A stretch of 64,000 bases of DNA from Mycoplasmatota bacterium. Its GTDB lineage: Bacteria > Bacillota_I > Bacilli_A > MAG-NZ. The DNA is taken from NCBI GenBank assembly GCA_018394315.1, contig CP074575.1, positions 1,458,615 through 1,522,614 of the forward strand. Direction: 5' to 3'. Made by a program: the position numbers and the translations under genes. Below, piece by piece: positions 90 to 18,125 of this stretch (its first letter is position 1; each line of letters opens with the position of its first letter). The notes below the pieces were generated by a model that saw only the letters and a list, made by a program, of their open reading frames with translations, had not been told where the DNA came from and searched no databases.

Positions 90-243
90 AAAGAATTTTG
101 TCGAGTTGGTGTTATTTACAATCCTATGAGAAAGTTTAAAAAACTTAACAAGGATGATGTTGAAATAGTTACAATAAGTCCTAAAGTCCTAAAATCTATT
201 CTTTATTATTTAAGGTATGCAGAACAAACTCTTAAAGTACTAA
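90..243 (+). pseudogene. Internal fragment of a tyrosine integrase related to 20138..21085
   Basis: FCRVGVIYNPMRKFKKLNKDDVEIVTISPKVLKSILYYLRYAEQTLKVL aligns with YCEVQELINNNPLRNFTLLKKEDTETVIISPKVIKSIIKYLNTTEQTQEVL of the intact integrase; catalytic domain absent; followed by element-end hairpin and att core. Confidence 0.8.
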
Positions 244-329
244 AAAAAATAGGTAGTCGATTAAAGAGTGAATCATGGTTTTTCGCAACACATGATTTCA
301 ACTTTTATCACTTACCTATGCTATTTTAA

Positions 330-467
330 TGGCACCCCAGGAGAGATTCGAACTCTCTAAACACTAATTTAAGCTTATATATTATTAAGTTTTCAAGTAA
401 TTATATCATACGACATGGAAACTGACTTTCCACCTTAGAAAAAAAGGTGAGATTATTTCTCACTTTT
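330..467 (+). repeat. att/arm module R1 (full 26-bp tRNA 3' end, arm, palindrome, hairpin)
   Basis: TGGCACCCCAGGAGAGATTCGAACTC-TCTAAACACT...CATGGAAACTGACTTTCCACC...GTGAGA/TCTCAC. Confidence 0.95.
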
Positions 468-554
468 GACATTAACTGATTTTAGTACAAATAATACCTT
501 TTATTGGTACCCTTAAACGTTCTGAGTAGGATAAATACCGATAATACCGTCGTT

Positions 555-1730
555 TCAATCACTTATAACTATCAAATTAGGTAAATGTAAATATTCACAA
601 TGTATTATCAGTTCATTTTCGATAGCATCAGTTAGCGTTATTACCTTATCATCAACTAACAGTACATAATCAGAGAATGAACCTCCTATCATAGTGTAAT
701 TACCAAAAGTTTCTTCATAATCAAGATCATAACTATTGGAAGCATTATAATACATAGGATTTTGATACATCCCGATATATACACCATTTCCATCAAAGTA
801 ATTACTTATAATTTCTGGGACAAAGTGTTTTTCGTTCATAAACACTTTCTCTGCTGTAGTCTGACCAGGACCAGTTTCTAGGTAAATACCGAAAGTTATA
901 TTAACGAGGTTACCAACTTTAAAATCGTTTGATACCCCATCGGCATACTCAGTTTTCTCACTAATAGAAACATATGTTAATCCCGGCTGGAATAAAGATT
1001 GTACTAAAATATCGTGCTCATCAAAATCAACAATTGGTCCAATTATGTTGTTGTTTACACCAACAATTGGTGGATAATATGCTTTTACTGCGGTGGCTGT
1101 CCAAGGATAACTGGATTTATCAAGATCTTTTACTTCAAATTCTAGATGATATCTCCATTGTTCTATCTCAGGGAATTCATCAGAGGTCTCTGTGTCTTCT
1201 AATATTTCAACCCATATATGACCAAAGTTTGATAGTTTATCGGGAATAAGTAATTTATTTCCTATTTTATCTCTAGGCCACCCACCAATCATATTTGCAT
1301 CGGATAACATTTTAGCCTCTTTGGTATAATCTCTTTTTTCACACGCTCCTTTTATGGAACATAATTCCTCTATAGATATCCCTAATTCTTTAATACTCGT
1401 TCTACCATTAATCTTATAATCTGGACCAGATAACATATATGCATTACCATCTTTGAAAGCAAATACTCCTGTATAACAATTACTCCCCCCCTGTCCAGAT
1501 ATTTTCCATTCGTTATTTAATAATACAGGCCATACAATATCTTCAGTACAATTTTCAGAAGAGATAGTGTCCCTTTTCCATATTTCATAATTGTTGATTT
1601 CACCTATATAGATAAGATCTTTCATTGGTATTTTGAATCTATCACTTATGATTGATGCACTAGGATTATTATTACATGAAGAAACTAATACTATTGTTGT
1701 CAAAATAATGAATACTTTAATATACTTCAC
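555..1730 (-). CDS. Lipoprotein of unknown function (cassette A)
   Basis: GTG start after GGAGAAAGGGTG; basic N-terminus, hydrophobic stretch, LVSSC lipobox; the ORF-track extension to 1850 runs into the repeat. Confidence 0.8.
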   Translation of the reverse strand: MKYIKVFIILTTIVLVSSCNNNPSASIISDRFKIPMKDLIYIGEINNYEIWKRDTISSENCTEDIVWPVLLNNEWKISGQGGSNCYTGVFAFKDGNAYMLSGPDYKINGRTSIKELGISIEELCSIKGACEKRDYTKEAKMLSDANMIGGWPRDKIGNKLLIPDKLSNFGHIWVEILEDTETSDEFPEIEQWRYHLEFEVKDLDKSSYPWTATAVKAYYPPIVGVNNNIIGPIVDFDEHDILVQSLFQPGLTYVSISEKTEYADGVSNDFKVGNLVNITFGIYLETGPGQTTAEKVFMNEKHFVPEIISNYFDGNGVYIGMYQNPMYYNASNSYDLDYEETFGNYTMIGGSFSDYVLLVDDKVITLTDAIENELIIHCEYLHLPNLIVISD

Positions 1731-1830
1731 AAAAATCACCCTTTCTCCACACTTGTACTCTAATAATATCATATCAGGCCCAAAAAAAAGAAAAATAGGT
1801 TCGATAGAGTAATATTTTGGATTAGAGAAG

Positions 1831-1954
1831 GATTCGAACTCTCTAAACACTGATTTAAGCTTATATATTATTAAGTTTTCAAAAGCATTATAACATACGA
1901 CATGGAAACTGGCTTTCCACCTTAGAAAAAAACGAAAAATATTTTTCGTTTTTT
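1831..1954 (+). repeat. att/arm module R2
   Basis: GATTCGAACTCTCTAAACACTGATTTAAGC...TGGAAACTGGCTTTCCA...AAAACGAAAAA/TTTTTCGTTTT. Confidence 0.95.
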
Positions 1955-2119
1955 AATGTAATGATAATAGAGAAAGATTCTCTACCCTACAGATATAACC
2001 ATAAGGTTAGTGTTTTTTTGATATTAGTTGTTGTATGTACTGTAATTTGGTAGTTACAAAAGTATATGATAAAATTGAAATAAGTTAGGAAATGATTATC
2101 AAAATAAAGGGTGAATAAG

Positions 2120-3337
2120 ATGAATAAAATATTAACCATGTTTTTTCTATTAGTGTTAAGTAGTACTTTAATAGCGTGTGAGAAGGAAACAGTTCCATTG
2201 AATGAGGGTGTGAAAAACCCATTAGTAACTGAAGGGAATTCTGAGTTTGCTTTTGATATCTTCAGGGAGTTAAATAATGATGATTATAATGAGAATATTT
2301 TTATATCTCCTTTTAGTATTTCGAGTGCACTAGCAATGACTTTGAATGGGGCAGTAGGAGATACTAAAGATTCAATGCAAACTACACTGCAACTAAAAGA
2401 CATAAATATTGAGGATATGAATAATGGGTTTGCATATTTAAATCACATGTTAACAAACCTTGATGATGATGTTGAGATTAATATCGCAAATTCGCTTTGG
2501 GTGAAAGATGAATTTACAATGAACAAGCAATTTGAATTTGATATTAAAAGTAATTTTAATGCGAATGCTACTTTGCTGGATTTTGAAGATGATAAGTCGG
2601 TAGATGTAATTAATGAATGGGTAAGTGACAAGACTAATGATTTAATAGATGAAATAATTATAGGAATAGATCCATATGCTGCATTAATCTTAATAAATGC
2701 GATATATTTTAATGGTTCTTGGCAAGATGAATTTGATCCTAGCAAGACTCAATCAAGAGATTTTACTACAATAGACAAAAATGTTATACAAGTTGATATG
2801 ATGAACAGAACCGATGAAATCGGTTTTTATGAGGATAGTGAAATCACAGCTGTAAAACTACCATATGGTGATGGATCAATTAGTATGTATTGTGTTTTGC
2901 CTAATGGAAATGAAGACATAAATTCTGTGATTCGAGAGATGAACGTAGATAAGTGGAATGATTTAAGAAATGAAATGAACTACTTTTATGAAGTTACTCT
3001 TGAGTTACCAAAATTTAAAATGGAATATGGGATTAAAGAATTAAACGATGCTTTGATAAATCTAGGCATGGACGTAGCATTTGATGAAAGAGCATATTTT
3101 CCTGATTTAATAGAGGGAATGGAAGATAATCTATATATAAATGCAGTAAACCATAAAGCGGTAGTTGACGTTGGTGAAGGGGGGACTGAGGCAGCAGCAG
3201 TTACATCTGTTGTTACAGCACCGGGAGCATCACCTATTGAAATTGAGGAACGTACGTTTATAGCAAATAGACCATTTTTATTTATAATAGGTGATGAAGA
3301 AGGAAATATCTTATTCATGGGAAAAAAAGTAACATAA
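2120..3337 (+). CDS. Lipoprotein serpin (cassette B)
   Basis: LIAC lipobox; NIFISPFSI, LINAIYFNGSW, hinge EGGTEAAAVT and FIANRPFLF serpin motifs. Confidence 0.95.
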   Translation: MNKILTMFFLLVLSSTLIACEKETVPLNEGVKNPLVTEGNSEFAFDIFRELNNDDYNENIFISPFSISSALAMTLNGAVGDTKDSMQTTLQLKDINIEDMNNGFAYLNHMLTNLDDDVEINIANSLWVKDEFTMNKQFEFDIKSNFNANATLLDFEDDKSVDVINEWVSDKTNDLIDEIIIGIDPYAALILINAIYFNGSWQDEFDPSKTQSRDFTTIDKNVIQVDMMNRTDEIGFYEDSEITAVKLPYGDGSISMYCVLPNGNEDINSVIREMNVDKWNDLRNEMNYFYEVTLELPKFKMEYGIKELNDALINLGMDVAFDERAYFPDLIEGMEDNLYINAVNHKAVVDVGEGGTEAAAVTSVVTAPGASPIEIEERTFIANRPFLFIIGDEEGNILFMGKKVT

Positions 3338-3389
3338 TTAATAAAGGGTGTTATTATGATAGTAGAAGTTAAAATGGAACAGGTATTTT

Positions 3390-3513
3390 GATTCGAACTC
3401 TCTAAACACTGATTTAAGCTTATAAATTATTAATTTTTCAAAGGCATTATAACATATTACATGGAAACTGGCTTTCCACCCTAGAAAAAAAGTAGAAAAT
3501 AATTTTCTACTTT
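3390..3513 (+). repeat. att/arm module R3
   Basis: Same module; hairpin AAAGTAGAAAA/TTTTCTACTTT. Confidence 0.95.
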
Positions 3514-3546
3514 ATATTTCTTATGATCGCACGCTTATAATCTTCA

Positions 3547-4074
3547 TTATTCAGATATCATACCATCTTTGAACTCTTGATATGCACTCTCGAAATCTAA
3601 TAACATTGATTCAGGAATATACATTACAAACAGTTCGTCTAATCTGTAAGATTCATCATCGCTTTTAATCAATCCTCTTCCAGCAACGTTGCCGACACCA
3701 AAAGGTTGAGATAGATCAAGCGTACTCCCACCAGTTCCCACACTAAATGCTTTAACAGGTACTCTTATCACAATTTTATCATCGACTTTCACCAAGTCAC
3801 CTTTTAGAACATTTATTATCTTTACTTCATAAATGTGACGTGGCATTTTTTGTCCATTTTCTTTATGCTCTTCAAGGCCTAAGTATTCTTTAATCTCGAT
3901 AATTGCAAAATCTGAAATGAATCTCTCAAAATTTTCCAATGTGGGAAGAATGAGATTTTCCTCAAAGGTAATACCTGGAACTTTTTTCATATGATATTTT
4001 TCATAAATATCCTCTGTTGACAGTGTACAACCTGAAAGAACCAGAATTAAAAAAAGTATTGTAATTTTTTTCAT
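3547..4074 (-). CDS. Lipoprotein (cassette C)
   Basis: MKKITILFLILVLSGC lipoprotein signal; RBS AAGGA. Confidence 0.85.
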   Translation of the reverse strand: MKKITILFLILVLSGCTLSTEDIYEKYHMKKVPGITFEENLILPTLENFERFISDFAIIEIKEYLGLEEHKENGQKMPRHIYEVKIINVLKGDLVKVDDKIVIRVPVKAFSVGTGGSTLDLSQPFGVGNVAGRGLIKSDDESYRLDELFVMYIPESMLLDFESAYQEFKDGMISE

Positions 4075-4189
4075 ATGTTCCTTCACCTTCTCTGTATATT
4101 AGTAACCATGATGTTTCTAGTACACTCTAATAATATCAGATTTGCAAAAAAAATATGAGTAAAACGTTCGACATCAAAAACAGAGGATT

Positions 4190-4314
4190 GATTCGAACTC
4201 TCTAAACACTGATTTTAGCTTATAAATTATTAAGTTTTCAAAGGCATTATAACATATGACTTGGAAACTGGCTTTCCACCTTGGAAAAAAAGTGAGAATC
4301 TTTTTCTCACTTTT
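4190..4314 (+). repeat. att/arm module R4
   Basis: Same module; hairpin AAAAGTGAGAA/TTCTCACTTTT. Confidence 0.95.
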
Positions 4315-4342
4315 GATTATGTAAATATTTATAAATCACTCT

Positions 4343-4660
4343 TTACTGCAGAAGCCAATAATTGTTCGTGTTGTATTCATATTTTTCTAACATTGCATGA
4401 TCAATCCATTTATTAACAGCTTCTTGATGGAAATAGTATTTATTATCAATGATTAGATATGGAAACATAACACCGGTAAATATATGATATTCTTCCAACA
4501 TACTTTGCTCTATTGCAATGATTTTCATTATTTTATCATCTTCTAGTCCTAAAAAAACAGAAACTTCAGTAATATCCATCAATTCACTGTTATCATCAAC
4601 CTCATCTGTTGTGTTTGTAGACGTATAACCATGTACAACTATGCCAATAGATATGATCAA
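4343..4660 (-). CDS. Small membrane-anchored protein with possible excisionase/HTH_17-like domain (cassette D); start may lie further upstream
   Basis: Hydrophobic N-terminus, then LMDITEVSVFLGL...FPYLII..KYYF...VNKWI; strong RBS near 4705. Confidence 0.6.
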   Translation of the reverse strand: MIISIGIVVHGYTSTNTTDEVDDNSELMDITEVSVFLGLEDDKIMKIIAIEQSMLEEYHIFTGVMFPYLIIDNKYYFHQEAVNKWIDHAMLEKYEYNTNNYWLLQ

Positions 4661-4967
4661 ACAACCTATAAGAAAATTATAATTTATTCCCTTAATAATA
4701 AACCCCTCCCTTTTCCTGATTCCTCTGACCTCCCTATTCTAATAATAGAAGAAGCGAAAAATGAGAACCAAAAACTATATTAAATTATACCACTTTAAAT
4801 TGAGTTGTGATACACATAGAATCCGACGAATTTTTATAATCCGATCCAACCTATAATTAATACGAGAGATTCTTAGAATTGATACAAGAAAAGTGTTAGT
4901 GAGATTATAGATTTAGGTAGAATTCGACAAGCACATATCAATAAAGATTCAATACCAAGAGAATGGG

Positions 4968-5090
4968 GACTCGAACTCTCTAAACACTTATTTAAGCTTA
5001 TAAATTATTAAGTTTTCAAAGACATTATAACATATGACATAGAATCTGGTTTTCCACCTTACAAAAAAAGTGAAAAATAATTTTCACTTT
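4968..5090 (+). repeat. att/arm module R5
   Basis: GACTCGAACTCTCTAAACACT...; slightly diverged palindrome. Confidence 0.9.
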
Positions 5091-5195
5091 CTAAAAAATT
5101 AAATAGGAGTAATTATATAGTTGTTTCTGTAATTGAATAAGATTTCTCCTAACGGATTTTCGTCATTATCTATATCCACTATTCTGTATTATCTT

Positions 5196-6128
5196 TTAAT
5201 CTATAGGTGTTGTCTCCATCCCTTTTGAACTCCAGTCCACTATTTTAGTAATATTATCAATCGTGTCAAAATATAGTACACCATCAAAAAAATAGATTGA
5301 CCCCCCTATTGATACATTTAAAGAGAATGAGAGTCTATTTGTTCCGTCACTAATAGTAGCGACTTTCTCGTAATAAGATTCACTTACGAACACATCCCTA
5401 TTTAGGCAATTTAAGTTGTCTATCTTATCATTCTCGAACTGTGACATAATATCATCTCCGATTCTCTCTATAAATTCATCTGAGAAGTAAGGAAAGAGTG
5501 CACTCTCAAATGTAGTTCGAACCTTGTTTTCATCTAGAGGGGTATAGCTGTCACAAAGGCCTATATCTGCATAAACTAGGTTGAAATAACTCTCAAAAAA
5601 TGATTCAGTTATTTGTACTAACTCTTCCTGAGCAATTTCATTATTAGTTTCTGTGTATGGTTGTGTTTCATCTTTCCAAAAAACATCAACCCAGTCAGCA
5701 GAAATCACATCAACAATGCTAATTAGACCGAATTCAATAGCATTCATCAAGTGAACGTAAGACCCATTGTGTTCTATGAAATAGTAATGATTGGTTGGAT
5801 TTTCCCACGAATAGCCTTTGTGCATCTTGGTAATTATGACGTTTTCATCCTCCCAAATAATTTCTGTGAAATCTTCTTTCACTGAGGAATTATTCCAAAA
5901 TCCTCTTGGGTATTTGTGAGAAATCATATAAACTTGTAAATCATTAAGCTGATAACTAGTTGGAATAACCTGATATTTAACTTGTATGCTCCAGTTAGAA
6001 TAACTATCACCAGGCACTTCTATGTATATTTCTTTAATTATAGTTTCACCAGGTACTTCTACATATTTTGTACAACCTGATAAGATCATAACTCCTAATA
6101 TTGATAACAAAGGTAATAATTTTTTCAT
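5196..6128 (-). CDS. Lipoprotein (cassette E)
   Basis: MKKLLPLLSILGVMILSGC lipobox; short repeat YxEVPG. Confidence 0.85.
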   Translation of the reverse strand: MKKLLPLLSILGVMILSGCTKYVEVPGETIIKEIYIEVPGDSYSNWSIQVKYQVIPTSYQLNDLQVYMISHKYPRGFWNNSSVKEDFTEIIWEDENVIITKMHKGYSWENPTNHYYFIEHNGSYVHLMNAIEFGLISIVDVISADWVDVFWKDETQPYTETNNEIAQEELVQITESFFESYFNLVYADIGLCDSYTPLDENKVRTTFESALFPYFSDEFIERIGDDIMSQFENDKIDNLNCLNRDVFVSESYYEKVATISDGTNRLSFSLNVSIGGSIYFFDGVLYFDTIDNITKIVDWSSKGMETTPID

Positions 6129-6285
6129 GATTTCCTCTCCCTGATAAGCTTATTTTATAATCACTTTCCTTTTGATAGAATTATTCATTTATTCTATAAT
6201 AATGATATCATTGAAATTATGCTTTTAATACACATAGAATTCGACAAAATCTTGTCAGAAAAAAATCAACGTTCTAGAGAACAAG

Positions 6286-6411
6286 GATTCGAACTCTCTA
6301 AACACTGATTTAAGCTTATATGATATTAAGTTTTCAAAAACATTGTAACATACGACATGGAAACTGGCTTTCCACCTTAGAAAAAAAGTGAGATTATTAC
6401 TTCTCACTTTT
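6286..6411 (+). repeat. att/arm module R6
   Basis: Same module. Confidence 0.95.
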
Positions 6412-6620
6412 CATGTTTAAATATTTAACAACTAATTTATACATCATCATATATATTGTCATTCAATAAAAATATCATTAAACTATTTGGTTAGTAAGAT
6501 AACATACAAAGTTTTAATTCATAACTCGATTTGAGAGAAGAAGAGATTAGAATTTGAATTAAATGAAATTATAACCATATAGTTATTCCATATTTATTAT
6601 GTAATTTCAATATAATCAAT

Positions 6621-6698
6621 ATACAATAAAAAAAATATACAATAAAAAAAAGATACAATGAATAAAAGATACAATAAAACATGATGCAATAAAACAAG
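6621..6698. repeat. Five 15-16-bp tandem repeats beginning ATACAATAAAA
   Basis: Units start at 6621, 6637, 6653, 6669, 6684. Confidence 0.75.
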
Positions 6699-6736
6699 TA
6701 CCGCAAAAAAAGAGACTAAAAAGTCTCAATATATAC

Positions 6737-7453
6737 CTATTTATAATTTATTTTCGCTTTAAATATATAAACGTAGTCATAGTTTAAAATTCTTTCTAGA
6801 GCTTTTTGATCATTATCAAAAACATCTAAATCGATACCAAGCGAAGCATCTCCACCTTCTCTTGCGATTATTGCTAATATGAGAGGTTCGTTTAATGCTA
6901 TTTTCTTATCAGATCTCAAGCCTGCCCAGGTAGTTCCAATACCAATAATATCCTCATTATTTAAGTTTACTAGTGAAGAAATGCTACCTATTGATTGAGA
7001 AGAACTATCTTTCTCCACAACAGAAATTATCCACTCATCATTATTACTATGAATTGTGTTTTTTGACAACATAATGCTTCCTGTATTTATACTTTGAAAA
7101 TGATTAAGTTCAACAACATTATCTTGAAAAATTCCATCTCTATAATATTCAACCCAGCAGTTAACTCGTATATTTTCGAGCTCGTCCATAGAGTACTCGA
7201 ATATAAAATATTGATCTGCACCTGCAGTCTTTACCAATATTTCTTGATTTTCGGTTAGTTCTAATGGTGATATTTCAATAATTCCATCCTCTTTTACCGT
7301 AGTGTCACATCCTGATAAAATCATTAGTAACACTGATAGCAAAACAAATAAATTATTATTACTTTTCAAAACAGATGAACTCTTCCGAACAAAAGAATTA
7401 TCATCCATACATAAAGATAAATTACTAGTTATATTTCCCTCTTCAATTAACAC
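6737..7453 (-). CDS. Probable lipoprotein (cassette F); start uncertain
   Basis: LLSVLLMILSGC lipobox behind an unusually long N-terminus. Confidence 0.7.
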   Translation of the reverse strand: MLIEEGNITSNLSLCMDDNSFVRKSSSVLKSNNNLFVLLSVLLMILSGCDTTVKEDGIIEISPLELTENQEILVKTAGADQYFIFEYSMDELENIRVNCWVEYYRDGIFQDNVVELNHFQSINTGSIMLSKNTIHSNNDEWIISVVEKDSSSQSIGSISSLVNLNNEDIIGIGTTWAGLRSDKKIALNEPLILAIIAREGGDASLGIDLDVFDNDQKALERILNYDYVYIFKAKINYK

Positions 7454-7712
7454 TATTATCTCACCCTTTCAAATCACTTTACATTCTATCAATAGTATAA
7501 ACCATGCTACTATCCAATGCTACCCTATAATGAATAAAGTCATTAGTTTTAATAGATACCATTGAAATGACTTATTATTTAAAAATATATAGTATGAGTA
7601 TTCATGTTTTTAATGTTAGAACTGGGGGAGTCCATTGTACTTTCTAAATAAACTATATTCTCTATATGATTATCCCACGATAGAATTTTTACACCTGTTT
7701 ACCAATGGGAGT

Positions 7713-7834
7713 GGTTCGAACTCTCTAAACACTGATTTAAGCTTATATATTATTAAGTTTTCAAGCCATTATATCATACGACATGTAAACTGACTTTCCA
7801 CCTTAGAAAAAAAGTGAGATTATTTCTACTTTTT
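7713..7834 (+). repeat. att/arm module R7
   Basis: GGTTCGAACTCTCTAAACACTG... Confidence 0.95.
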
Positions 7835-7880
7835 CGTTTAAGTTTTGCTGAGTGGAGAATATCTAATTTCTTGTTTATAC

Positions 7881-8492
7881 TTATCCCCCATGAATATTAT
7901 ACATAGTATTACCCACACTATCATAAACATTCATTCCAGTGAATGCAGAAAAATCTCGATCAGTTCTATCAATCATATAATAGCCATCGCCCATTTGATG
8001 ATTTTTTTCAGCAATATTTAATATTATGGGCTCTTGGTTTCTGAATTCATAAATAACCTGTGAAACGTCGTCGTTGACTATTACTCCAAATATAACCTTG
8101 GGCACTAGATTGCTATATTGAATAACAGGAGCAGTAGTAGAACTACGTTCAGCATCATATTCATTAAGCTGATAATCCCCAGAGTTATCTTTAGTGACTT
8201 TACATAGTTTTAGAATATAAAAATCTTCAATCGAATCAATATAAGAATAAAATAGATAGATTTGGTCATCAGACTCAAATAGTTTATGCACCTGTAAAAA
8301 GTCTTGTTTGGGAGAACTCACCCGTATAAAGTTTTCTTGGTCTTCAAGATTTTTATATACTAAATCCTCGGCGACTAATAAAATAGTGCTAGCTTCTTCC
8401 TGCAGATTTATTTCTCTCTCACAACCAGAAAGAAGTTGTACTGACAATATGATAAAAAATTTCAAGGTAATATTTCCTAGATGATTTTTCAT
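7881..8492 (-). CDS. Lipoprotein (cassette G, gene 2)
   Basis: LLSGC lipobox; AGGAGG RBS. Confidence 0.85.
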   Translation of the reverse strand: MKNHLGNITLKFFIILSVQLLSGCEREINLQEEASTILLVAEDLVYKNLEDQENFIRVSSPKQDFLQVHKLFESDDQIYLFYSYIDSIEDFYILKLCKVTKDNSGDYQLNEYDAERSSTTAPVIQYSNLVPKVIFGVIVNDDVSQVIYEFRNQEPIILNIAEKNHQMGDGYYMIDRTDRDFSAFTGMNVYDSVGNTMYNIHGG

Positions 8493-8513
8493 GATTCCTC
8501 CTAAGTTAATATA

Positions 8514-9014
8514 CTAACTGTTATAAAAAAATGATACATCGCCCAACACCATGTCTTTTTTGTCAGTAATTATTACCCTGTAGTTTATCCCACTCGCTAA
8601 TTTTTTATCAAGAATGCAAATGACCTCTTCAATTGATTTGTTGTAAAAATAATGCGCTCCACTTGTAATTAATTTACCCAAAAAATTATCATTCTCATCT
8701 AGCACCTTTATATTATATTTGAACATGTCAGTCTCTACATTTGAAATAAATCCAAATGAAATTTGAGAGAAATAATCATAATATAATATATCTGTAATTT
8801 CAATATCATTATCTTGGTAATCACTTTTTTCTAGCTCTAGAATTATATAATCATCATTGAGATCCTCTGTGTATCGATCGTAATCTTCGAGGTTAATGTA
8901 ATAAGAACCGATGTATTCATAATGGTCTCGATAATAATTAAATTTGAGTATAGGTATTAACAGCCAAATAATAATTCCCGTTATTAAAATAATGATAAAT
9001 ATCTTTATTTTCAC
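8514..9014 (-). CDS. Membrane-anchored exported protein (cassette G, gene 1)
   Basis: N-terminal TM helix; GGGAGTGG RBS. Confidence 0.75.
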   Translation of the reverse strand: MKIKIFIIILITGIIIWLLIPILKFNYYRDHYEYIGSYYINLEDYDRYTEDLNDDYIILELEKSDYQDNDIEITDILYYDYFSQISFGFISNVETDMFKYNIKVLDENDNFLGKLITSGAHYFYNKSIEEVICILDKKLASGINYRVIITDKKDMVLGDVSFFYNS

Positions 9015-9116
9015 TATTCCACTCCCTTTTTTTCTTCATACTTTAATAATATCATAAGAGAATAAAAAAGGTGATTAGTTCGTTCGACATAGTAACCCTC
9101 TAAGAAATAGAGAAAG

Positions 9117-9241
9117 GATTCGAACTCTCTAAACACCGTTTTAAGCTTATATATTATTAAGATTTCAAGCCATTATAACATGTCACATGGAAACTGGCTT
9201 TCCACCCTAGAAAAAAAGTGAAAATATTTTTCACTTTTTTT
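9117..9241 (+). repeat. att/arm module R8
   Basis: Same module. Confidence 0.95.
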
Positions 9242-9311
9242 GATGATTATAATAATGTTTTTACTTACTAATTGATTGACATATGGATTTTCAACCCTAA
9301 CCTATTTATGA

Positions 9312-9587
9312 TTATCTATTTGTCATAACAGCAGTCCCACAGACAATTAAATTTCCCGAGTAGGTTGGGTCTTCGCTAATTCTGACCGAATAAACACTGT
9401 CTGCGCCTTTTTCCTTAGCTTGTTTTAGCAGTTCTTTGAGAGCATCATAGATTCCCTCTTGAGTTAAATAACTTCCACTTTTGTCAGCATTAGTGTTTAT
9501 TTTAAAAGCAACTGTTCCCAGTGGTTTAGTATAACTAAAGGGTTCACATGTATATACATTATCTACCACTTTTGTCCTCCCTCCCAT
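9312..9587 (-). CDS. YbjQ-like (putative heavy-metal-binding domain) protein (cassette H)
   Basis: ALKELLKQAKEKGADSV...GTAV pattern, like 62812..63129. Confidence 0.65.
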   Translation of the reverse strand: MGGRTKVVDNVYTCEPFSYTKPLGTVAFKINTNADKSGSYLTQEGIYDALKELLKQAKEKGADSVYSVRISEDPTYSGNLIVCGTAVMTNR

Positions 9588-9647
9588 AGAAGTATAGATT
9601 TTTCAATCCTACATATATCTAATAATTCTTAAATAATTTGCTTACTT

Positions 9648-9989
9648 TCACTTATTAACGTATTTACCAACTAAAATAGCTCTTATTATTACGATAATAA
9701 AGAATAAAACAAAACTCACTTTTATTATTACGCCATATAAAGTATTTTCCTCATATATCATTTTGCCTACTAATGGCAGAACTACTCCAATAAACATGAA
9801 TACACTTGTAAATATCATGGAGTTCCCTGCATATTTACCCATTCTCTCCTTATCATGTTTTTTTGGATCGTAGCCTGAGACAATATAAACCATCTTACCT
9901 TTTCTAAGTTGTCTTCCCAGTAAAAATATTACAAGATTAATAATACTGAAGAGTATTATTACAAATAAATACACATATTTACTTTCCAT
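9648..9989 (-). CDS. Small 3-TM membrane protein, DUF3784-like (cassette H)
   Basis: TM, then IVSGYD, then two TM segments. Confidence 0.65.
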   Translation of the reverse strand: MESKYVYLFVIILFSIINLVIFLLGRQLRKGKMVYIVSGYDPKKHDKERMGKYAGNSMIFTSVFMFIGVVLPLVGKMIYEENTLYGVIIKVSFVLFFIIVIIRAILVGKYVNK

Positions 9990-10108
9990 ACAACCCTCCT
10001 GTACAGTCTATGGATAGTTTATCATAAAAAATTAAAAAACCTAAAGAAAAGTGTTTGACAGAACTAGTTCACATATCCCTTTTGCATTGGATAATGATAG
10101 TAATCCTG

Positions 10109-10175
10109 GATTCGAACTCTCTAAACACTGATTTAAGCATATATATTATTCAGTATTCATAACATTATTTCATGC
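10109..10175 (+). repeat. Truncated att/arm module R9 (no palindrome or hairpin)
   Basis: GATTCGAACTCTCTAAACACTGATTTAAGC, then decays. Confidence 0.85.
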
Positions 10176-10228
10176 AAAATTAGATATGCTATAATTAGAG
10201 TGAAATTATGATAAATGGGGAGAATAGT

Positions 10229-11356
10229 ATGACTAAAGGGATAATATATGTATGGAATGTTAACGGTGTAGTTAAATATGTCGGAAGAACTGTTCATACT
10301 CTAGACGAAAGAACTAGAGCTCATATAACAGAATATAAGAAGCAACTTTCAAGTGGTAATATTACTACTCAAAAATTCATCGAAGTGCATAAACTTGAAA
10401 ATAAGTGGGATGAAGTTGAATTTTCAATTATTGAAGAAGTGTCCGACCTAGGTAAACTTGGAAGTAGAGAATTGTATTGGTATAAGAAGTACAATACCGA
10501 TAACCAACTATGGAACTCGGCAATTCCTTTTGACACGGAATACTTAATACTTACGGAAGAAGAGAAGTATAAAAAATCAGTACATAAGCAATTAAGTAAA
10601 TTCATACAAAGGGAAATACTTGAAAGTGTATGGAAAATAAAGAAAGCTATCTCTGATAAAATCCACCAATTAACTTTTGTTGAGATTGAGCCAAATACAT
10701 TTGTATTAAGAGAACAACTTTCTGGGGAGAGGGTAGAGATAAGTTTAACTGAACTTACAATTACTGAATTATCCGAGTGTGTTGACAATAGACTATTTGG
10801 TAATATTTTGTATGAACTTGTTACCAAGGACTTTTACGAGAATTATGAAAAGTGGCACTCTGCTAAACCACTTGATACAGACATAGTAACGGAACACTTT
10901 AAGGATAAACTAAATAAGTTCACTATAGAAGAACAGTTAGAGTATTACGAGAGTACAAATAAATGGAAGTATTCGTCCAAACACGAAAAGCACGATAAGA
11001 AAGTAGAGAGAAACGAATTTTTGCGTAACTTTGATAAAGAGTATGAGGAGTTAATCAAAGGTAACTCGAGAAATTGGTTTATCAAGAGAAAACCAAAAGA
11101 CATATTGGACGAATTATTTAAAAAGTATAGCAATAGCGAGTTTATAGCCACTCTTATGACCTATATAAGGGGTAAAAATACTGGTGGAGGACAATCTTTT
11201 AATATGACAACCAATAAGTATAAGAAAATAAGTGACCTTGACAGAGAGATTATATTCGATAAATACCATTACAAAAATGGTGGTTATAAGTCATTTTTTG
11301 GGCTTGATAATAATACAACTACTTATATAATAAATGTGAGAAACAAGAAAAAGTAA
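10229..11356 (+). CDS. GIY-YIG-type nuclease domain protein (cassette I)
   Basis: GIIY...YVGRT...ERTRAH...RELYW...WN motif order typical of GIY-YIG. Confidence 0.75.
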   Translation: MTKGIIYVWNVNGVVKYVGRTVHTLDERTRAHITEYKKQLSSGNITTQKFIEVHKLENKWDEVEFSIIEEVSDLGKLGSRELYWYKKYNTDNQLWNSAIPFDTEYLILTEEEKYKKSVHKQLSKFIQREILESVWKIKKAISDKIHQLTFVEIEPNTFVLREQLSGERVEISLTELTITELSECVDNRLFGNILYELVTKDFYENYEKWHSAKPLDTDIVTEHFKDKLNKFTIEEQLEYYESTNKWKYSSKHEKHDKKVERNEFLRNFDKEYEELIKGNSRNWFIKRKPKDILDELFKKYSNSEFIATLMTYIRGKNTGGGQSFNMTTNKYKKISDLDREIIFDKYHYKNGGYKSFFGLDNNTTTYIINVRNKKK

Positions 11357-11751
11357 AAAAAGAAGAACTACACGATTTAAAAATTTTGGAACTAAACGAA
11401 CTAGATTATCTAATTGTATACAAAACACGATTTAATTATTTTCTACAAGGTATTGAAAATAGAAAACGTTTTAAAAAAAATCTTTGAAAAAAATCAATAT
11501 TAATCTTCTCTTATTTGTTATTATGATTATTATCGTTTTACGTGTAAGCTAATCATGGTTATAATACAAGTATAAAAACAACACAGACATATTTACATTT
11601 GACTTCAAAAAAAATACAAAGCAAACATAAACAATATTCACCAATAAATAAGTTTGCTTATACAAAAAAAGTAAGCGATGTCCCCATACCTAAAATATAG
11701 AATGTTCCCACACCTAGAATGGACTCTTTTCGCTTACCTATGATTTTTTTA

Positions 11752-11883
11752 TGGCACCCCAGGAGAGATTAGAACTCTCTAAACACTGATTTAAGCTTAT
11801 AAATTATTAAGATTTCAAGCCATTATATCATACGACATGGAAGCTGGCTTTTCACCCTAAAAAAAAATGAAAAAATATTTTTT
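11752..11883 (+). repeat. att/arm module R10 (full tRNA 3' end, one mismatch), preceded by element-end hairpin
   Basis: CGCTTACCTATG...TGGCACCCCAGGAGAGATTAGAACTC. Confidence 0.95.
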
Positions 11884-12038
11884 GCTTTGAATATTGTGAC
11901 TCAATAGATTAATAATAGACAATAACGAATAACAGAATAAGACTTTTAACTAACAAAATCCAATTGTATCAGAGTTTAGTATAGATAGAAATATGATATA
12001 ATTTGATAAGTAGAACACGTTTACGAAGAGGGGATAAG

Positions 12039-13181
12039 ATGAAAGAAAAAAACAGTTTCCTTATAACTAAATATATTCATCCATTAGAGAGAAAAATTGT
12101 GCTTGATGAAGATAGAAATATAATTTTTGATAATCCTAAAACAATTGAGGAGATAACCTTTATAGAAAATATCATAAAAAAAACATATTTTGCCTATAAA
12201 CTTGACGACTTTGGAAAAAAATTCGCTAAGGCTGCAAACTCGAATGAGAGTATGATCGATAAATTTGACGAGAACGATGAATTACTTACTCTCAAGCTAT
12301 ATTATTTTTCATACATGAGAGATGTTGGAAAACATGATAGTTTTATAAAGGAATTTAAAGAATCAAATTTGGAATCTTCTAAATCTAACATATTTAACCT
12401 GATATCAAGAATGAGTATTATTATTAGATACGAGGAAGAAGAAAAACAGAATATTAGTGGAAAAGAGATATGCACAATGTACTCAAATCTACTGTACTTA
12501 GTATGCAATAATGATTTTGGAGGAAAATTGGAGCATTTGTCAATTCATGTTAATAATGATGACTCAAATTTTATAAATAAAGATTATGCAAGTCTATTTG
12601 AAAACCTAGCAAACACATATTTTTATTCTTATACAAACACTCCTGAAAATTCATTTCACTATACAATTAATGAGTACATAAAATGGAGTAAGCTTATTAA
12701 TGAATTTACAACTAAAGATAAAATAGATAAGTTAATCTATTTATCAAATATTTTGGAACTTATAAACAACAGCAAAAAAAATTACAATTATAAGGTTCTA
12801 AGTTTAGTTAGTATACTTGAACTATTTTTAACTCACAACCCAAATTATATGAGATACAATATCGAAGACTCTATCAGCAAACAGTTTACACTTAAGGTAG
12901 CTATAGTTATGCATTACGACAATCCTAAAATAGACTTGATTAAGTTAGACGAGAAATTGAAATTCATTTATAATATACGATCTAACATAGCACATGGAAA
13001 TTTTGCAAAGAATAATAAACTGATGAACAAGTTTTATGATTATTACGAGTGCGATAAGAGTAATAGTGATCTCGAAGAAAAATTTAAGATAATTTCTGAT
13101 GATCTATACTCGATAGTCTCGATATTATTAAAAAGATATTTTACTAATTCGCAATTTATTGATTTTTTGAAAGAAAAATAA
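12039..13181 (+). CDS. HEPN-domain protein, ApeA-like, putative defence RNase (cassette J)
   Basis: LVSILELFL helix plus YNIRSNIAHG (RxxxxH) motif. Confidence 0.75.
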   Translation: MKEKNSFLITKYIHPLERKIVLDEDRNIIFDNPKTIEEITFIENIIKKTYFAYKLDDFGKKFAKAANSNESMIDKFDENDELLTLKLYYFSYMRDVGKHDSFIKEFKESNLESSKSNIFNLISRMSIIIRYEEEEKQNISGKEICTMYSNLLYLVCNNDFGGKLEHLSIHVNNDDSNFINKDYASLFENLANTYFYSYTNTPENSFHYTINEYIKWSKLINEFTTKDKIDKLIYLSNILELINNSKKNYNYKVLSLVSILELFLTHNPNYMRYNIEDSISKQFTLKVAIVMHYDNPKIDLIKLDEKLKFIYNIRSNIAHGNFAKNNKLMNKFYDYYECDKSNSDLEEKFKIISDDLYSIVSILLKRYFTNSQFIDFLKEK

Positions 13182-13196
13182 TTCTATTTTGATTTT

Positions 13197-13312
13197 ATTC
13201 GAACTCTCTAAACACTGATTTAAACTTATATGTTATTAAGATTTCAAGACATTATGCCATGCAACATGAATACTGGATTTCTACCCTTTAATAAACAGAA
13301 TTTAATTCTGTT
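13197..13312 (+). repeat. att/arm module R11 (diverged)
   Basis: ATTCGAACTCTCTAAACACTG...; hairpin AACAGAAT/ATTCTGTT. Confidence 0.9.
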
Positions 13313-13313
13313 C

Positions 13314-13412
13314 TTAAATTTCCTTGTCTAAGATTCTGACAGTATACTTTTTCTTAGTGTAATCGTACTCTATTGATAAGTAGATAACCTATCAGTAAAA
13401 ACCGCATTTATT
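13314..13412 (-). pseudogene. 3' remnant of a paralogue of the HTH gene 15026..15259
   Basis: Encodes INAV...YLSIEYDYTKKKYTV with a frameshift; TTAGTGTAATCGTACTCTATTGATAAGTAGATAA is identical to the ~15066-15099 segment. Confidence 0.85.
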
Positions 13413-13726
13413 ACGAAACGACATATCATTGACCAAAATAAAGTCTCATAAGAGACTTTTTAGTTTGCTTAGGAATTAATGACTCAACAAATATAATAAT
13501 AGAACAGTTGTCGTAAGTGTAATGATTCGTCAATGCCACAACTCGATGATATTCGAACATCAGTGTAGAGCCTCACGACCACAAGTTACTCTTTATGCAG
13601 TGTTGGAGGCAGAATCAATATGGGTTAGATTGTTTTTACGTAATTAACGAAAAGAAAAATGTAGAAAATTGTATATCTCTACTGTATACTTTAAGTAGAG
13701 AGTAGAATAGCAGGAGGGAGAATTAT

Positions 13727-14335
13727 ATGTTTTTAGTTTTAGATGAATCTGGAACATTTTCAAATAAGAAGCAAAGATATTACATAATTGGTGGTTACTT
13801 GACTAATGATTTAAATAAAGTTAAGTCAATTCATCGAAAGAAAGAAGCAATAATCAAGCGAAGAAAAAAAATACCTTTAAAAGCCAATGTTGAATTTAAA
13901 GCACATAGACTTCTCCCAAATGATCAGGCAATGTTTATAAATGCAATAACTGAAGAAAGCAATATTCATCCAGTTGCAATAATAGTGGACAAAAATTCGA
14001 TACAAAATGAGATTTCAGAGAATGGTGCATATTTTATATATTTGAAATTACTTATTAAGAAAGTTATTAACCAATTCAACTTAAAAGATTGTAACCTAGA
14101 GATACTTTTGGATAACCGAACTTTTAATGAAAAACATAAAAATGAATTCTTGCTTGAAACGAAATATTTTTATGACGGAAGATTAAGTCTGGAATTTCTT
14201 GAGTCACACCATAAAAGAGAGATACAAGTAGCAGATTACATAGCGAATTTTCTATATGTTAAGTATAATAAAGATGAACAAAAATACAAAACCAGAATTA
14301 AAAACTTGGATAAATTTTTTATTGTAATTATCTAG
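13727..14335 (+). CDS. DUF3800 family (RNase H-like) protein (cassette K)
   Basis: N-terminal LDESG, EFK and C-terminal IQVADYIA motifs. Confidence 0.85.
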   Translation: MFLVLDESGTFSNKKQRYYIIGGYLTNDLNKVKSIHRKKEAIIKRRKKIPLKANVEFKAHRLLPNDQAMFINAITEESNIHPVAIIVDKNSIQNEISENGAYFIYLKLLIKKVINQFNLKDCNLEILLDNRTFNEKHKNEFLLETKYFYDGRLSLEFLESHHKREIQVADYIANFLYVKYNKDEQKYKTRIKNLDKFFIVII

Positions 14336-14356
14336 CTGCTTCTATCTATTTAAAAT

Positions 14357-14737
14357 AAAAAAGTGAATTTCTTCACTTTTTTAGCTCATAGGTGTCACGT
14401 ACTTACATTACGCTTAGGCGAACTCCCTATCAACCGGCTTACCTACCGAGTCTTGTTAATATATTTTAACATACAGAACACCGTATGTAAAGTATAAAAA
14501 AAGCAGCAAAAAGCAGCTTTCTCTAGCTCATAGGTGTCACGTACTTATATTACGCTTAGGCGAACTCCTCATCAACCGACTTACCTACCGAGTCTTGTTA
14601 ACTAATATTAACATACAGAAAACTATTTGTAAAGTATAAAGAAAGCAGGTAAAACCGCTTTCTTTAGCTCGTAGGTGTCACGTACTTACATTACGATTAG
14701 GCGAATTCCATCAACCGACTTACCTACCGAGTCTTAT
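14357..14737 (-). ncRNA. Three tandem ~100-nt structured sRNA genes (period 141-142 bp) convergent with the DUF3800 gene
   Basis: ~75-bp conserved units at 14382, 14524, 14665; TTTACA-17-TAAAAT/TAATAT promoters for two units; hairpin plus U tract after each. Confidence 0.75.
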
Positions 14738-14925
14738 TGAGAATTCTCACTAATATTATGTCCGTTTTATATATTATATTAAAATTAGTGCTTTTTGCTA
14801 ATTTCAAATGTGTACATCAACTAAACCTTCTACATCCTTCTCGTAAGTTCTTGACACTTAGTACTATAAATAGGTGTTAATTGTTGAATAAAAGGATATT
14901 TTCTATCTTATTATCGGTGTTGGCG

Positions 14926-15026
14926 ACTGAAACTAAGGTTAATCTTATTAAAATTTAAGACGTAATCTCATTCAGCATGTAAACTGGCTTTCCAACCTAG
15001 AAAAAAACAGAAGTAAATTCTGTTTT
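14926..15026 (+). repeat. Degenerate arm module R12 lacking the att core
   Basis: CATGTAAACTGGCTTTCCAACCTAGAAAAAAACAGAA...TTCTGTTTTT. Confidence 0.75.
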
Positions 15027-15259
15027 TAATTATCTCCCTCTAAGTCATTGACAGTATACATCTTTTTAGTGTAATCGTACTCTATTGATAAGTAGATAAA
15101 TCTATTGGCAAGAACAGCGTTGATTCTTTGAAAATGATTTCTAATTGTTTTTTCAGAAACTCCGTAGTGTTCTGCCAGGTCTGATTTCTTTAACTCTTTC
15201 TTCTCAATTACGAACATTATAAGTAATTCTAATGCTGTCTCAATGATCCTGCTTTCCAT
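15026..15259 (-). CDS. Small HTH DNA-binding protein
   Basis: KSDLAEHYGVSEKTIRNHFQRI HTH. Confidence 0.8.
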   Translation of the reverse strand: MESRIIETALELLIMFVIEKKELKKSDLAEHYGVSEKTIRNHFQRINAVLANRFIYLSIEYDYTKKMYTVNDLEGDN

Positions 15260-15455
15260 TTTTTCACCCAGTAAAAATAATAACAATAATGAACTCCATA
15301 AATATTATTTACTCGCTCTCAAATTCAGTAAAAGAAGAAAAATATATTAAACAAAGAGGGACGTCTATCCCTTATACTTATATGAAGTATTTTATATCTG
15401 CTACAAAAAAAGAAGATATCGAATTCAATACCAGGTCAAAACAATAATCAAAGAT

Positions 15456-16229: not shown

Positions 16230-16588
16230 ATAACCCTCCTGAAAAATCTAATCTAAACCTTTAATATATTTTATTTTACCATATATGTACATTTTCCCTA
16301 TTGTAGTAAACTAACAAAGAGCTGTAATTATTACACAAAAAATATAATATAAAGTCAAATTAGTTTATTTGCTTAATATATAATTCTTCTAATTATCTTA
16401 TTAATACTTATACTGACATACCCTCCTTATACACATATACCAGGTACCATATACTCACTTTGCAAGTTCCATAAACCCATCTTATAAAACCATCTACCCA
16501 CCTTATAGATTTTTCATAAAAAAAATAATCAAGAAATTCTTGATTGTTTATATGACAATTTAAAGTTAGATTCATGAGAATCCTTTCT

Positions 16589-17437: not shown

Positions 17438-17455
17438 TATAGTACCCCCTTTCCT

Positions 17456-17812: not shown

Positions 17813-17825
17813 TTAGTCACCTCAT

Positions 17826-18113
17826 TTATAATCGAGTTATATCTCGTTTTTGTCTTTCAATACTTCTATGATATTCAATAGCTCTTTTAATCTCTTCAAC
17901 ATCAATACATACTAGTGGTTTATCAGATACTTCATGTACAGCACTACACATTAACGTGGCCACATACGTCCAACCATCTATTGTTGTTAGTACCTGGACA
18001 CTAACTTTATTTAAGTTTACTTTCTTAATGATTCCACTAAGTTTGGTTTTAGAGAAGAAACCATTATAAACACCTTTAAAATACTTTCCATTATCGCTAG
18101 TACTTAGTACCAT
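17826..18113 (-). CDS. Hypothetical protein
   Basis: GAGGTG RBS; within the leftward operon. Confidence 0.7.
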   Translation of the reverse strand: MVLSTSDNGKYFKGVYNGFFSKTKLSGIIKKVNLNKVSVQVLTTIDGWTYVATLMCSAVHEVSDKPLVCIDVEEIKRAIEYHRSIERQKRDITRL

Positions 18114-18125
18114 AAAATCACCTCT

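Follow-up and report, generated by a model that had tools for sequence, protein, structure and literature searches.

To our knowledge, integrons are the textbook dedicated system for cassette capture, and this capture is confined to the integrase IntI and its attC sites. In single-stranded form the attC sites, which are imperfect palindromes, fold by R''-L''/L'-R' pairing, and IntI carries an extra domain. Here an array is described in which short modules derived from a tRNA-Arg(TCT) gene separate small gene units next to a Xer-like tyrosine integrase in a Mycoplasmatota bacterium (GenBank assembly GCA_018394315.1, contig CP074575.1; genome of 2,165,257 bp, 31% GC). The window, i.e. the whole stretch of 64,000 nucleotides that was analysed, comprises genome positions 1458615-1522614; coordinates are those of the window unless given as genome positions. 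On balance, the units are probably integrase-less cassettes moved by core-specific recombination, closest to CIMEs (cis-mobilizable elements) and their tandem accretion and integron-like in their working.

The primary papers on CIMEs and accretion are reportedly those of Pavlovic in 2004 and Bellanger in 2011. In the available part of a further source, integrase-less units flanked by attachment (att) sites are described at the att sites of ICEs (integrative and conjugative elements) and IMEs (integrative and mobilizable elements), in the ICESt1/ICESt3 family and others (PMC5704250). The tycheposons of Prochlorococcus are, in the portion of the preprint at hand, tyrosine-recombinase elements at tRNA genes that form tandem stacks separated by partial tRNAs; their islands contain scattered integrase fragments and extra partial tRNAs, and carry cargo as 'plug-in' cassettes (bioRxiv 10.1101/2020.12.28.424599). 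In the Vpma/Xer1 system of Mycoplasma agalactiae, as presented in the available extracts, lipoprotein genes have conserved 5' sites between which DNA is inverted by a Xer-like recombinase, so that a different one of the genes is expressed (PMC2268961, PMC5634654). A literature search of limited reach on integron-like tRNA cassette systems and Izemoplasma integrases returned nothing describing the present system.

The window holds eleven modules of ~125 bp, all on the plus strand, which start at 330/346 and at the ten further positions in Table 1. A repeat search of the window returned an eleven-copy direct-repeat family (about 104-131 nt each, starting at 346, 1832, 3391, 4191, 4969, 6287, 7714, 9118, 10110, 11768 and 13197) and a related copy in direct orientation at 14954-15027. 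Alignment revealed a common layout of (G)ATTCGAACTC, then TCTCTAAACAC..., then a conserved arm; after the core (G)ATTCGAACTC the modules read TCTCTAAACACTGATTTAAGCTTATA... before this arm. The core corresponds to the T-loop and adjacent bases of the tRNA-Arg(TCT) gene at 21175-21251 (minus strand), read on the plus strand. A preliminary description of this DNA had listed twelve same-orientation copies of about 125 bp and had derived the beginnings of eleven of them from the T-arm of this tRNA. All twelve positions indeed hold what was described, and the location of the core in the T-loop region points to an att-derived site. The twelfth copy, at 14926, had been called coreless; it has a core of the tRNA-Trp anticodon-arm type, TCGGTGTTGGCGACTGAAAC, at about 14914.

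Searching the genome with the 18-mer TTCGAACTCTCTAAACAC (at most 2 mismatches) gave 22 sites, all on the plus strand and all within genome positions 1,420,404-1,471,829 (52 kb); none of the 22 cores lies on the reverse strand, and the reversed pattern gave 0 sites in the same genome. The array, earlier placed at 330..15026, is thus real, well in excess of chance, and not bound to the window, as 11 further cores lie outside it, up to 38 kb leftward. A BLAST-level search added one degenerate module copy at genome 1441859. This copy is included in the 23 Arg-type modules counted below, while the module at 14926 is counted separately. Inter-module units measure 0.6-3.8 kb, two larger blocks excepted. 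The 11 units in the window had been described as unrelated; they show no mutual similarity (blastp, E<=1e-3), but three have paralogues in the array outside the window. Modules cut down to the core plus ~35 nt are found at genome 1424915 and 1468725, and likewise in a sister species (G007). Among 8 genomes compared within the family and order, the module is present only in this genome and in G007. Rfam (window 1-22000, E<=1) returned only the tRNA and weak DUF3800-I matches and left the modules unmatched. A metagenome scan with the 18-mer gave 22 loci with one match each, none of the 22 with the palindrome of the arm and most of 50-61% GC, i.e. chance matches; in viral contigs there were 0 module matches. 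It is scarcely credible that the module is a self-spreading short repeat, such as a miniature inverted-repeat transposable element (MITE), clustered by chance. Its short, uniform, non-coding form would suit a MITE, and weak arm-like matches exist at genome 638207, 639734 and 682902. These outlying matches, however, cover the promoter/palindrome part only and lie at the ends of other tRNA islands, and no terminal inverted repeats were seen by alignment and folding. Genome-wide scatter, named in the preliminary description as one alternative to its own proposal, was looked for, and 22 of 22 full cores lie in the one tract on one strand.

The tRNA-Arg(TCT) gene is the only tRNA gene in the window and a single-copy gene, one of the 33 tRNA genes of the genome (ARAGORN). 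Its full 26-nt 3' end, TGGCACCCCAGGAGAGATTCGAACTC, is repeated at 330 and 11752, and a third full copy carries a 1-nt deletion (genome positions 1443610, with the deletion, 1458961 and 1470383). Each of the two full copies within the window has an integrase remnant directly on its left (96-245 and 11563-11655), and remnants are found only beside full tRNA 3' copies. The intact integrase gene stops 89 nt short of the tRNA 3' end; with an integrase by an intact tRNA gene and a distal repeat of its 3' end, the locus has the make-up of a tRNA-integrating island. The three full copies of the tRNA 3' end and the two integrase remnants show that no fewer than four related islands integrated in series at tRNA-Arg(TCT). 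One of them is intact, while at least two of the older ones are left with integrase fragments only, and the array is a nested composite island in which each serial island has its own sub-array. The full 26-nt repeat is present, however, at only 3 of the 23 junctions (2 perfect, 1 with the 1-nt deletion). About 19 junctions contain at most 11 nt of the tRNA, ending exactly at the T-loop; they lack the acceptor-stem part, and unrelated cargo sequence directly abuts the core. Since integration of a whole island leaves the 26-nt repeat, these short-core junctions need another origin, and since they all stop at the T-loop, their pattern misfits independent random deletion or simple decay of islands. 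None of the units between short-core modules encodes a recombinase of this integrase family; one holds an IS3-type transposase.

The locus resembles CIMEs, as far as the available part of that source describes them, in that integrase-less att-flanked units are stacked at a tRNA 3' end beside a resident element, with decayed integrases in between, and in that the integrase of a neighbour, in cis or in trans, could move the units. Indeed, units without integration genes are flanked here by the att cores of the resident integrase. In the same part of the source CIMEs keep attL and attR with the whole target repeat, whereas about 19 of the 23 junctions here have at most 11 nt and one arm. The present units are also single-gene sized (0.6-3.8 kb) and number 23, with 51 Trp-type cores in a relative; one and the same cassette is met in more than one array, and each site has a promoter/operator/terminator block. 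CIMEs and accretion can thus be taken to explain the serial islands and the integrase-less att-flanked units but not the junctions without target repeat. Compared with tycheposons, which in the available portion of the preprint are complete elements that each bring an integrase and often replication genes, most units here lack mobility genes, have a long conserved arm in common and keep the crossover core only.

Duplicated cassettes in this genome indicate where the units break. In a self-comparison, DNA identity was 91-94% among three serpin genes, 79-96% among four genes for a ~415-aa lipoprotein and 92% between two genes for a 238-aa protein. In each of the three serpin pairs the homology sets in at GATTCGAAC, to the left of which the flanks are unrelated. 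The left arms of the serpin cassettes are 99-100% identical, which are ranks 1-3 of 210 arm pairs (mean 85%), while the arm beyond the next core shows background identity (85-90%). These bounds of homology define the unit as core, arm plus cargo, and next core. Cassette order varies by sub-array, with serpin-lipoA-lipoB in one and lipoA'-serpin in another.

The strongest evidence for movement lies in a relative and in a second core type. The record of Mycoplasmatota bacterium WC44 (G008) contains a tRNA-Trp anticodon stem-loop core, ACGGTGTTGGAGACC, in 51 copies (control 0) and at least 6 clusters (about 124-142, 833-860, 895-909, 1514-1559, 1620-1628 and 1730-1733 kb). This Trp module family reads ACGGTGTTGGAGACC followed by GAAACGACRCATAT, and a subfamily has a ~60-nt arm, ...AATAATATTCA...CGACACACGGATTTTCAATCC. 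There are 37 inter-core intervals of at most 6 kb (median 1,098 bp), and open reading frames (ORFs) mostly lie opposite to the module strand (64 vs 14). Among 48 modules, 8 pairs have a common left flank and a wholly unrelated right flank; the reverse and the sharing of both flanks occur 0 times each. Four pairs were inspected base by base. In three of these the shared segment measures 438, about 510 and 571 bp (97%, 89% and 97% identity) and has a core on each side, some degenerate; its copies are located in different arrays, where the neighbours on either side are unrelated. This pattern is regarded as the footprint expected of cassettes that recombine at their cores, one that homologous recombination cannot explain. 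In the present genome the Trp-type core has 13 copies (control 1), including genome 1430867, 1432591, 1433378 (-); one of the 13 is the core of module 14926.

Sister species G007, the only one available, also carries Arg-type modules, with other cargo: a short-chain dehydrogenase/reductase (SDR) and aminotransferase pair, and LemA with an M48 peptidase. The 635 bp by which the contig extends past its tRNA-Arg(TCT) hold a tRNA-Leu and an ORF of unrelated sequence. Arrays with different content, which the preliminary description had suggested seeking in relatives, are thus met as modules with different cargo, but not as an island within those 635 bp. The SDR and aminotransferase pair lies between modules at 298-2312 of L046 (G007:C227). 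Its homologue in the present genome (window 44596-46586) is located outside the array in ordinary chromosomal context, 23 kb right of the tRNA; identity is 76% at the DNA level and covers the coding region only.

The integrase at 20138 had been considered distinct from IntI, and this was borne out: the integron-integrase model TIGR02249 reached 62.3 bits against a cut-off of 265 and covered residues 235-304 only. The best NCBIfam models were XerA, XerC and XerD, all below cut-off. Its best PDB match was XerA (5hxy), and the IntI4 entry 2a3v aligned to residues 251-301 only. Residues R166, K191, H258, R261, H284 and Y293 are invariant across 15 homologues and are interpreted by us as the R-K-H-R-H-Y catalytic set. 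No arm-binding N-terminal domain was detected with Pfam and NCBIfam. Homologues are few, 36 at E<=1e-10. The closest are from an Izemoplasmatales metagenome-assembled genome and the WC44 record, where they occur in the same geometry, beside tRNA-Trp or tRNA-Ser 3' ends. Two paralogues in the present genome (55% and 50% identity) each head another island, one of which lies at tRNA-Ser(TGA) and contains an integrase remnant besides three tRNA-fragment repeats. The label 'satellite' integrase found no support. Capsid, terminase and primase genes were not found with Pfam, PHROGs and NCBIfam, nor a replication module with Pfam and PHROGs; PHROGs matched the integrase, regulators and the methyltransferase only. 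The island therefore does not group with phage satellites of the phage-inducible chromosomal island (PICI) kind. In viral contigs the best integrase relatives are 25-29% identical over >100 residues, with no close relative among them.

In its logic the locus matches an integron: small, mostly single-gene, integrase-less cassettes with one site each form a polar array (22 of 22 cores co-oriented) with a tyrosine recombinase at one end, and a promoter reads across the recombination site. Integrons nevertheless fit in only one of three defining traits. The integrase here is Xer-like and not of IntI type, and the sites are tRNA-loop, duplex-type cores with a conserved arm instead of folded attC hairpins. 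In addition, the platform is itself a mobile island in a tRNA gene, and many cassettes have their own promoters and mixed gene orientation. The preliminary description had held the modules to be unlike attC. This agrees with the folding of three modules as DNA on both strands, which formed separate local hairpins at the core, the palindrome and the terminator but no base pairs spanning the site.

On the minus strand the arm consists of an A-run/hairpin/T-run, a palindrome, an extended -10, ~45 near-invariant nt and the core. The palindrome, TGGAAA-N5-TTTCCA (operator-like GGAAR-N5-YTTCC), is present in 19 of the 23 modules, and a perfect extended -10 (TGnTATAAT), pointing across the core, in 16. 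The hairpin stems vary in sequence between modules while their pairing is kept. The palindrome/-10 unit is also found at 20066-20112, after the XRE gene and before the start of the integrase gene, and upstream of the paralogous integrase at tRNA-Ser; the distal arm of that island contains it in inverted form, by a tRNA-Ser fragment. The core-proximal ~35 nt differ between Arg and Ser islands. Because they are near-invariant and all that truncated modules keep, the core with about 35 nt is probably the integrase-specific site. The distal arm would be a repressor-controlled outward promoter with an insulating terminator. Since the same palindrome/-10 unit precedes the integrase gene, arm promoters and integrase are probably under one island repressor, possibly the XRE protein acting on the palindrome. 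This protein scored 38.1 bits with the NCBIfam model for RstR-family repressors (cut-off 80), and the XRE-integrase gene order recurs at the two paralogous integrases.

These features could also mean that the module is mainly regulatory (terminator, operator, promoter or leader) and was copied with duplicated lipoprotein genes, its likeness to att sites being a historical accident. The frequent -10 and palindrome and their presence upstream of two integrase genes fit such a role. Furthermore, 9 of the 13 cargo genes in the 11 units of the window lie on the minus strand, downstream of the module promoter, and several minus-strand cassettes have a ~60-nt stretch left of the core in common (repeat family D10). 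Gene duplication, however, cannot have spread the module among the mutually unrelated cargo of these 11 units. Four of the units, and 14 of the 31 array ORFs (17 minus, 14 plus), are opposite to the arm-promoter strand; truncated copies keep the core and about 35 nt and lose the promoter part, and the module occurs at one locus only, beside tRNA and integrase. A mainly regulatory module is therefore considered improbable. Two other ideas on the arm were dropped. As a tRNA-like gene it was not recognized by ARAGORN and Rfam, and by our own count the stretch from inferred start to CCA is about 63 nt. A 'covariation' of Arg and Ser operators as proof of the repressor failed, the palindromes differing at one half-site position (GGAAA vs GGAAG). 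The integrase promoter palindrome itself combines one GGAAA-type and one GGAAG-type half-site and counts only as a shared unit.

In the explanation favoured above, movement of integrase-less cassettes at the cores, the locus arose on two levels. On the first, which the sequence shows, related integrase-bearing islands integrated serially at tRNA-Arg(TCT), each integration regenerating the tRNA and pushing the earlier island and the displaced 26-nt 3' end leftward. On the second, which we infer, integrase-less cassettes of 0.6-3.8 kb would reside within the islands; each would have the conserved ~110-bp arm, 1-4 cargo genes and, as its crossover core, the T-loop sequence ATTCGAA flanked by 1-3 bases. 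Supplied in trans, the Xer-like integrase would recombine core with core, so that every resident module could take up or release a circular cassette, in the manner of attI and attC in integrons. Insertion at a module instead of the tRNA would spare the single-copy tRNA.

Several observations weigh against this explanation. The arms of the lipoprotein cassettes do not track their cargo (ranks 11-118 of 210), and the homology of the 238-aa paralogues ends inside cassettes; for these reasons gene conversion or homologous exchange is taken to act as well. The duplicated cassettes are 79-96% identical, so that no recent event is visible in this genome. Several modules are truncated or mutated, and most lie in islands from which the integrase is gone. 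Two inverted binding sites would be expected for a simple Xer-like enzyme, whereas left of the core there is no conserved sequence, and a purine-rich AGAGA-like half-site is limited to some minus-strand cassettes. The arm promoters were not called by a simple promoter/terminator scan, which did not single out the modules, as these promoters lack a -35 and the AT-rich hairpins fail a rule of 3 GC pairs; promoter-like sites are barely enriched (128 vs 97.5 +/- 9.6). Moreover, an arm promoter to the right of plus-strand cargo such as the serpin would yield antisense RNA, which misfits a pure 'expression' role. Only one sister genome exists for comparison, and it is fragmentary (55% complete). Most arrays of G008 are far from any intact integrase of this family. 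Arrays remote from an integrase are comparable to the CALINs (clusters of attC sites lacking integrases) of integrons.

Part of this also suits the view that the array is only a fossil record of serially integrated and decayed islands, altered by homologous recombination, unequal crossing-over or gene conversion between ~125-bp modules, with no cassette-level mobility now and perhaps never. Serial integration is certain from the three full tRNA 3' copies and two integrase remnants. The modules, 85% identical on average, are similar enough for homologous exchange, and the untied lipoprotein arms, the 238-aa paralogy that stops within cassettes, the degenerate modules and the age of the duplicates all agree with it. 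However, inter-module homologous exchange cannot join unrelated cargo to a core, and ~19 of 23 junctions stop at one T-loop position without the rest of the 26-nt block. Nor does it fit the serpin homology, bounded by cores and with the left arm linked to the cargo, or the G008 cassettes, which are 89-97% identical in arrays hundreds of kb apart and have only a 15-30-nt core in common. A mere fossil record is thus unlikely, though it deserves more weight than the other alternatives. As to the original proposal that the integrase stockpiles, excises or reorders cassettes, duplication and reordering of the serpins with breakpoints at the core speak for it, more cleanly so for the Trp-core cassettes of the relative; the part played by homologous exchange in the lipoprotein arms and 238-aa paralogues detracts from it.

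It is tentatively suggested, as a possibility one step beyond core-specific movement, that the locus is a true functional integron analogue in Izemoplasmatales-like Mycoplasmatota, assembled from unrelated parts. In this joint proposal Xer-like integrases would use a symmetric tRNA loop (the Arg T-loop or the Trp anticodon loop) as minimal core; cassettes with a core and short arm would be inserted, excised and exchanged between arrays, which would persist without integrase; and the repressor-controlled promoter of each cassette would fire across the site, with cargo and integrase co-regulated. The integron analogy is partly supported, as architecture and breakpoints fit site-specific cassette exchange. 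The units are placed with the att-bounded integrase-less elements, a known kind, with a substantial chance that they form a true integron analogue. If a Xer-like island integrase indeed moves single-gene cassettes via a ~10-nt core and a short arm, cassette capture evolved more than once, and many 'tRNA-fragment graveyards' may be working gene stores instead of scars. The locus is well suited for tests, with an intact integrase beside the array, 23 sites graded from full to short-core to truncated, and paralogous cassettes in different orders; the related complete genome, with near-identical cassettes in different arrays, adds to this value.

Pfam names only a minority of the cargo: three serpins, GIY-YIG, DUF3800, DUF3784, DUF2089, LytTR and a permease. 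At least 13 of the 31 array ORFs have a lipoprotein signal (9 by regular expression, 4 by eye). Among 27 array proteins PADLOC matched only the island methyltransferase. The array is most likely a variable store of surface and secreted functions, and its lipoprotein and serpin cargo points to rapid cell-surface variation in a group with few cultured members. A phase-variation locus like Vpma/Xer1 would also have a Xer-like recombinase beside a cluster of surface-lipoprotein genes with conserved non-coding sites, in a related phylum; the records of integrase relatives point to Mycoplasmatota, and the share of lipoprotein-like ORFs is in keeping with it. In the available extracts, however, that system inverts DNA between opposed sites around a single promoter. 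The present 22 cores are direct repeats (0 of 22 inverted), at which recombination would delete or excise and not invert; most modules have their own promoter-like element with no single shared promoter, and the cargo is heterogeneous and not one gene family. Such a locus is very improbable here.

The three lipoprotein serpins (window 2111-3337, L022:13897-15099 and L023:2187-3404) are 88-90% identical, while the reactive-centre loop after the hinge GTEAAAVTS differs almost wholly in both sequence and length. The difference suggests that protease specificities have diversified inside a single array.

Table 1 Features of the window
Position	Strand	Feature	Basis or remark
96..245	+	Integrase remnant of an older decayed island	tblastn-type match to integrase residues 101-152, 52% identity, E 3.7e-8; genome 1458710-1458859, left of module 1
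330..466	+	Module 1: full displaced tRNA-Arg 3' end (330-355), arm, palindrome, terminator hairpin	17/17 match to tRNA 3' end left of core; hairpin called 463-447 (-); read as distal end of accreted island 2
555..1850	-	~415-aa lipoprotein cargo, 1 of 4 array paralogues	blastp 68-96% identity to the three others; true start likely near 1733; VSSC lipobox by eye; no Pfam family
1831..1950	+	Module 2: short core GATTCGAACTC and arm	
2111..3337	+	Lipoprotein serpin cargo, 1 of 3 in array	Pfam Serpin E 6e-107; lipobox LIAC
3390..3511	+	Module 3	
3547..4086	-	179-aa predicted lipoprotein cargo	no family
4190..4311	+	Module 4	
4343..4660	-	105-aa cargo protein	no family
4968..5089	+	Module 5: core variant GACTCGAACTC	
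5196..6128	-	310-aa predicted lipoprotein cargo	no family
6286..6410	+	Module 6	
6737..7453	-	238-aa predicted lipoprotein cargo	paralogue at genome 1448385-1449101, 88% aa identity
7713..7833	+	Module 7: core GGTTCGAACTC	
7881..9014	-	203-aa lipoprotein and 166-aa membrane protein cargo	
9117..9240	+	Module 8	
9312..9989	-	91-aa and 113-aa DUF3784 cargo	91-aa protein with weak YbjQ_1 match
10109..10170	+	Module 9, truncated: core and about 60 nt	without palindrome or terminator
10208..11356	+	382-aa GIY-YIG domain cargo protein	Pfam GIY-YIG E 1.3e-5
11563..11655	+	Integrase C-terminal remnant, assigned to accreted island 2	61% identity to integrase residues 284-314; 11566-11777 vs 20990-21200, 71% DNA identity
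11752..11890	+	Module 10: full displaced tRNA 3' end, mutated core TTAGAAC, arm	17/17 left-flank match; read as distal end of island with intact integrase
12003..13181	+	392-aa cargo protein	no family
13197..13316	+	Module 11: core TATTCGAACTC, diverged arm	
13727..14335	+	DUF3800 cargo protein	Pfam DUF3800 E 5.6e-13
14914..15027	+	Module 12: tRNA-Trp anticodon-arm-type core TCGGTGTTGGCGACTGAAAC, arm with palindrome and hairpin	
15026..19526	-	Intact island body: HTH_11 regulator, DUF4238 protein, small ORFs, N6/N4 DNA methyltransferase	
19833..20045	+	XRE-family HTH protein directly upstream of integrase	Pfam HTH_3 E 4e-10
20066..20112	+	Integrase promoter region: palindrome TGGAAACTGGGCTTCCA, then TGTATAAT	matched to module arm (family D5)
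20138..21085	+	Xer-like tyrosine integrase, 315 aa from ATG at 20138	Pfam Phage_integrase E 8e-32
21086..21174	+	Integrase-proximal arm (P'), between integrase stop and tRNA 3' end	last 27 nt recur left of both full displaced copies in window (family D8, 88% identity)
21175..21251	-	tRNA-Arg(TCT), integration target	ARAGORN; Rfam tRNA 62.8 bits

To the right of the tRNA-Arg a Pyr_redox gene is a conserved neighbour in three of the compared genomes (G007, G006 and G002). The far side is non-syntenic, with the tRNA-Leu in G007 and a different stretch in G006 that is 75-87% identical (tblastx) to genome 1328054-1331867 and holds putative rRNA; the left-flank gene of the array lies 208 kb away in G006. 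As no syntenic empty site is available, the left limit of the composite island is set only at or beyond genome 1420404. Between the present tRNA-Arg(TCT) and that of G007 (L133:3344-3420) the T-arm and both acceptor-stem strands differ, and by our own pairing the acceptor stem here has two G-U pairs. These differences are consistent with a 3' half of the tRNA supplied by the island.

In the P' arm of the intact island CAACACATGA occurs twice as a direct repeat (31 nt start-to-start), and the arm of a decayed island (11664-11750) has CCCAYACCTARAAT twice as a short direct repeat. Such island-specific repeats in integrase-proximal arms may be candidate accessory protein-binding sites. Beside the DUF3800 gene, a ~142-nt repeat stands three times in tandem at 14348-14755 on the minus strand (TRF: period 142, 2.5 copies); each unit has a full-model (1-115) match to Rfam DUF3800-I at 25-29 bits (gathering score 44.2). 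They may be a diverged, triplicated DUF3800-I motif, located next to the gene that usually partners it. Downstream of the stop of the 238-aa lipoprotein gene, at 6608-6694, a 16-nt A-rich tandem repeat, ATACAATAAAAAAAAG, is present in 4.7 copies and is absent from the paralogue of that gene. An IS3-family transposase pair (HTH_28/HTH_21 and rve; L021:13513-14816, genome 1423510-1424816) is located inside the array. It adjoins the module at genome 1424915, truncated there to the core and 20 nt, and is followed by a 15-kb block with two-component systems and ABC transporters.

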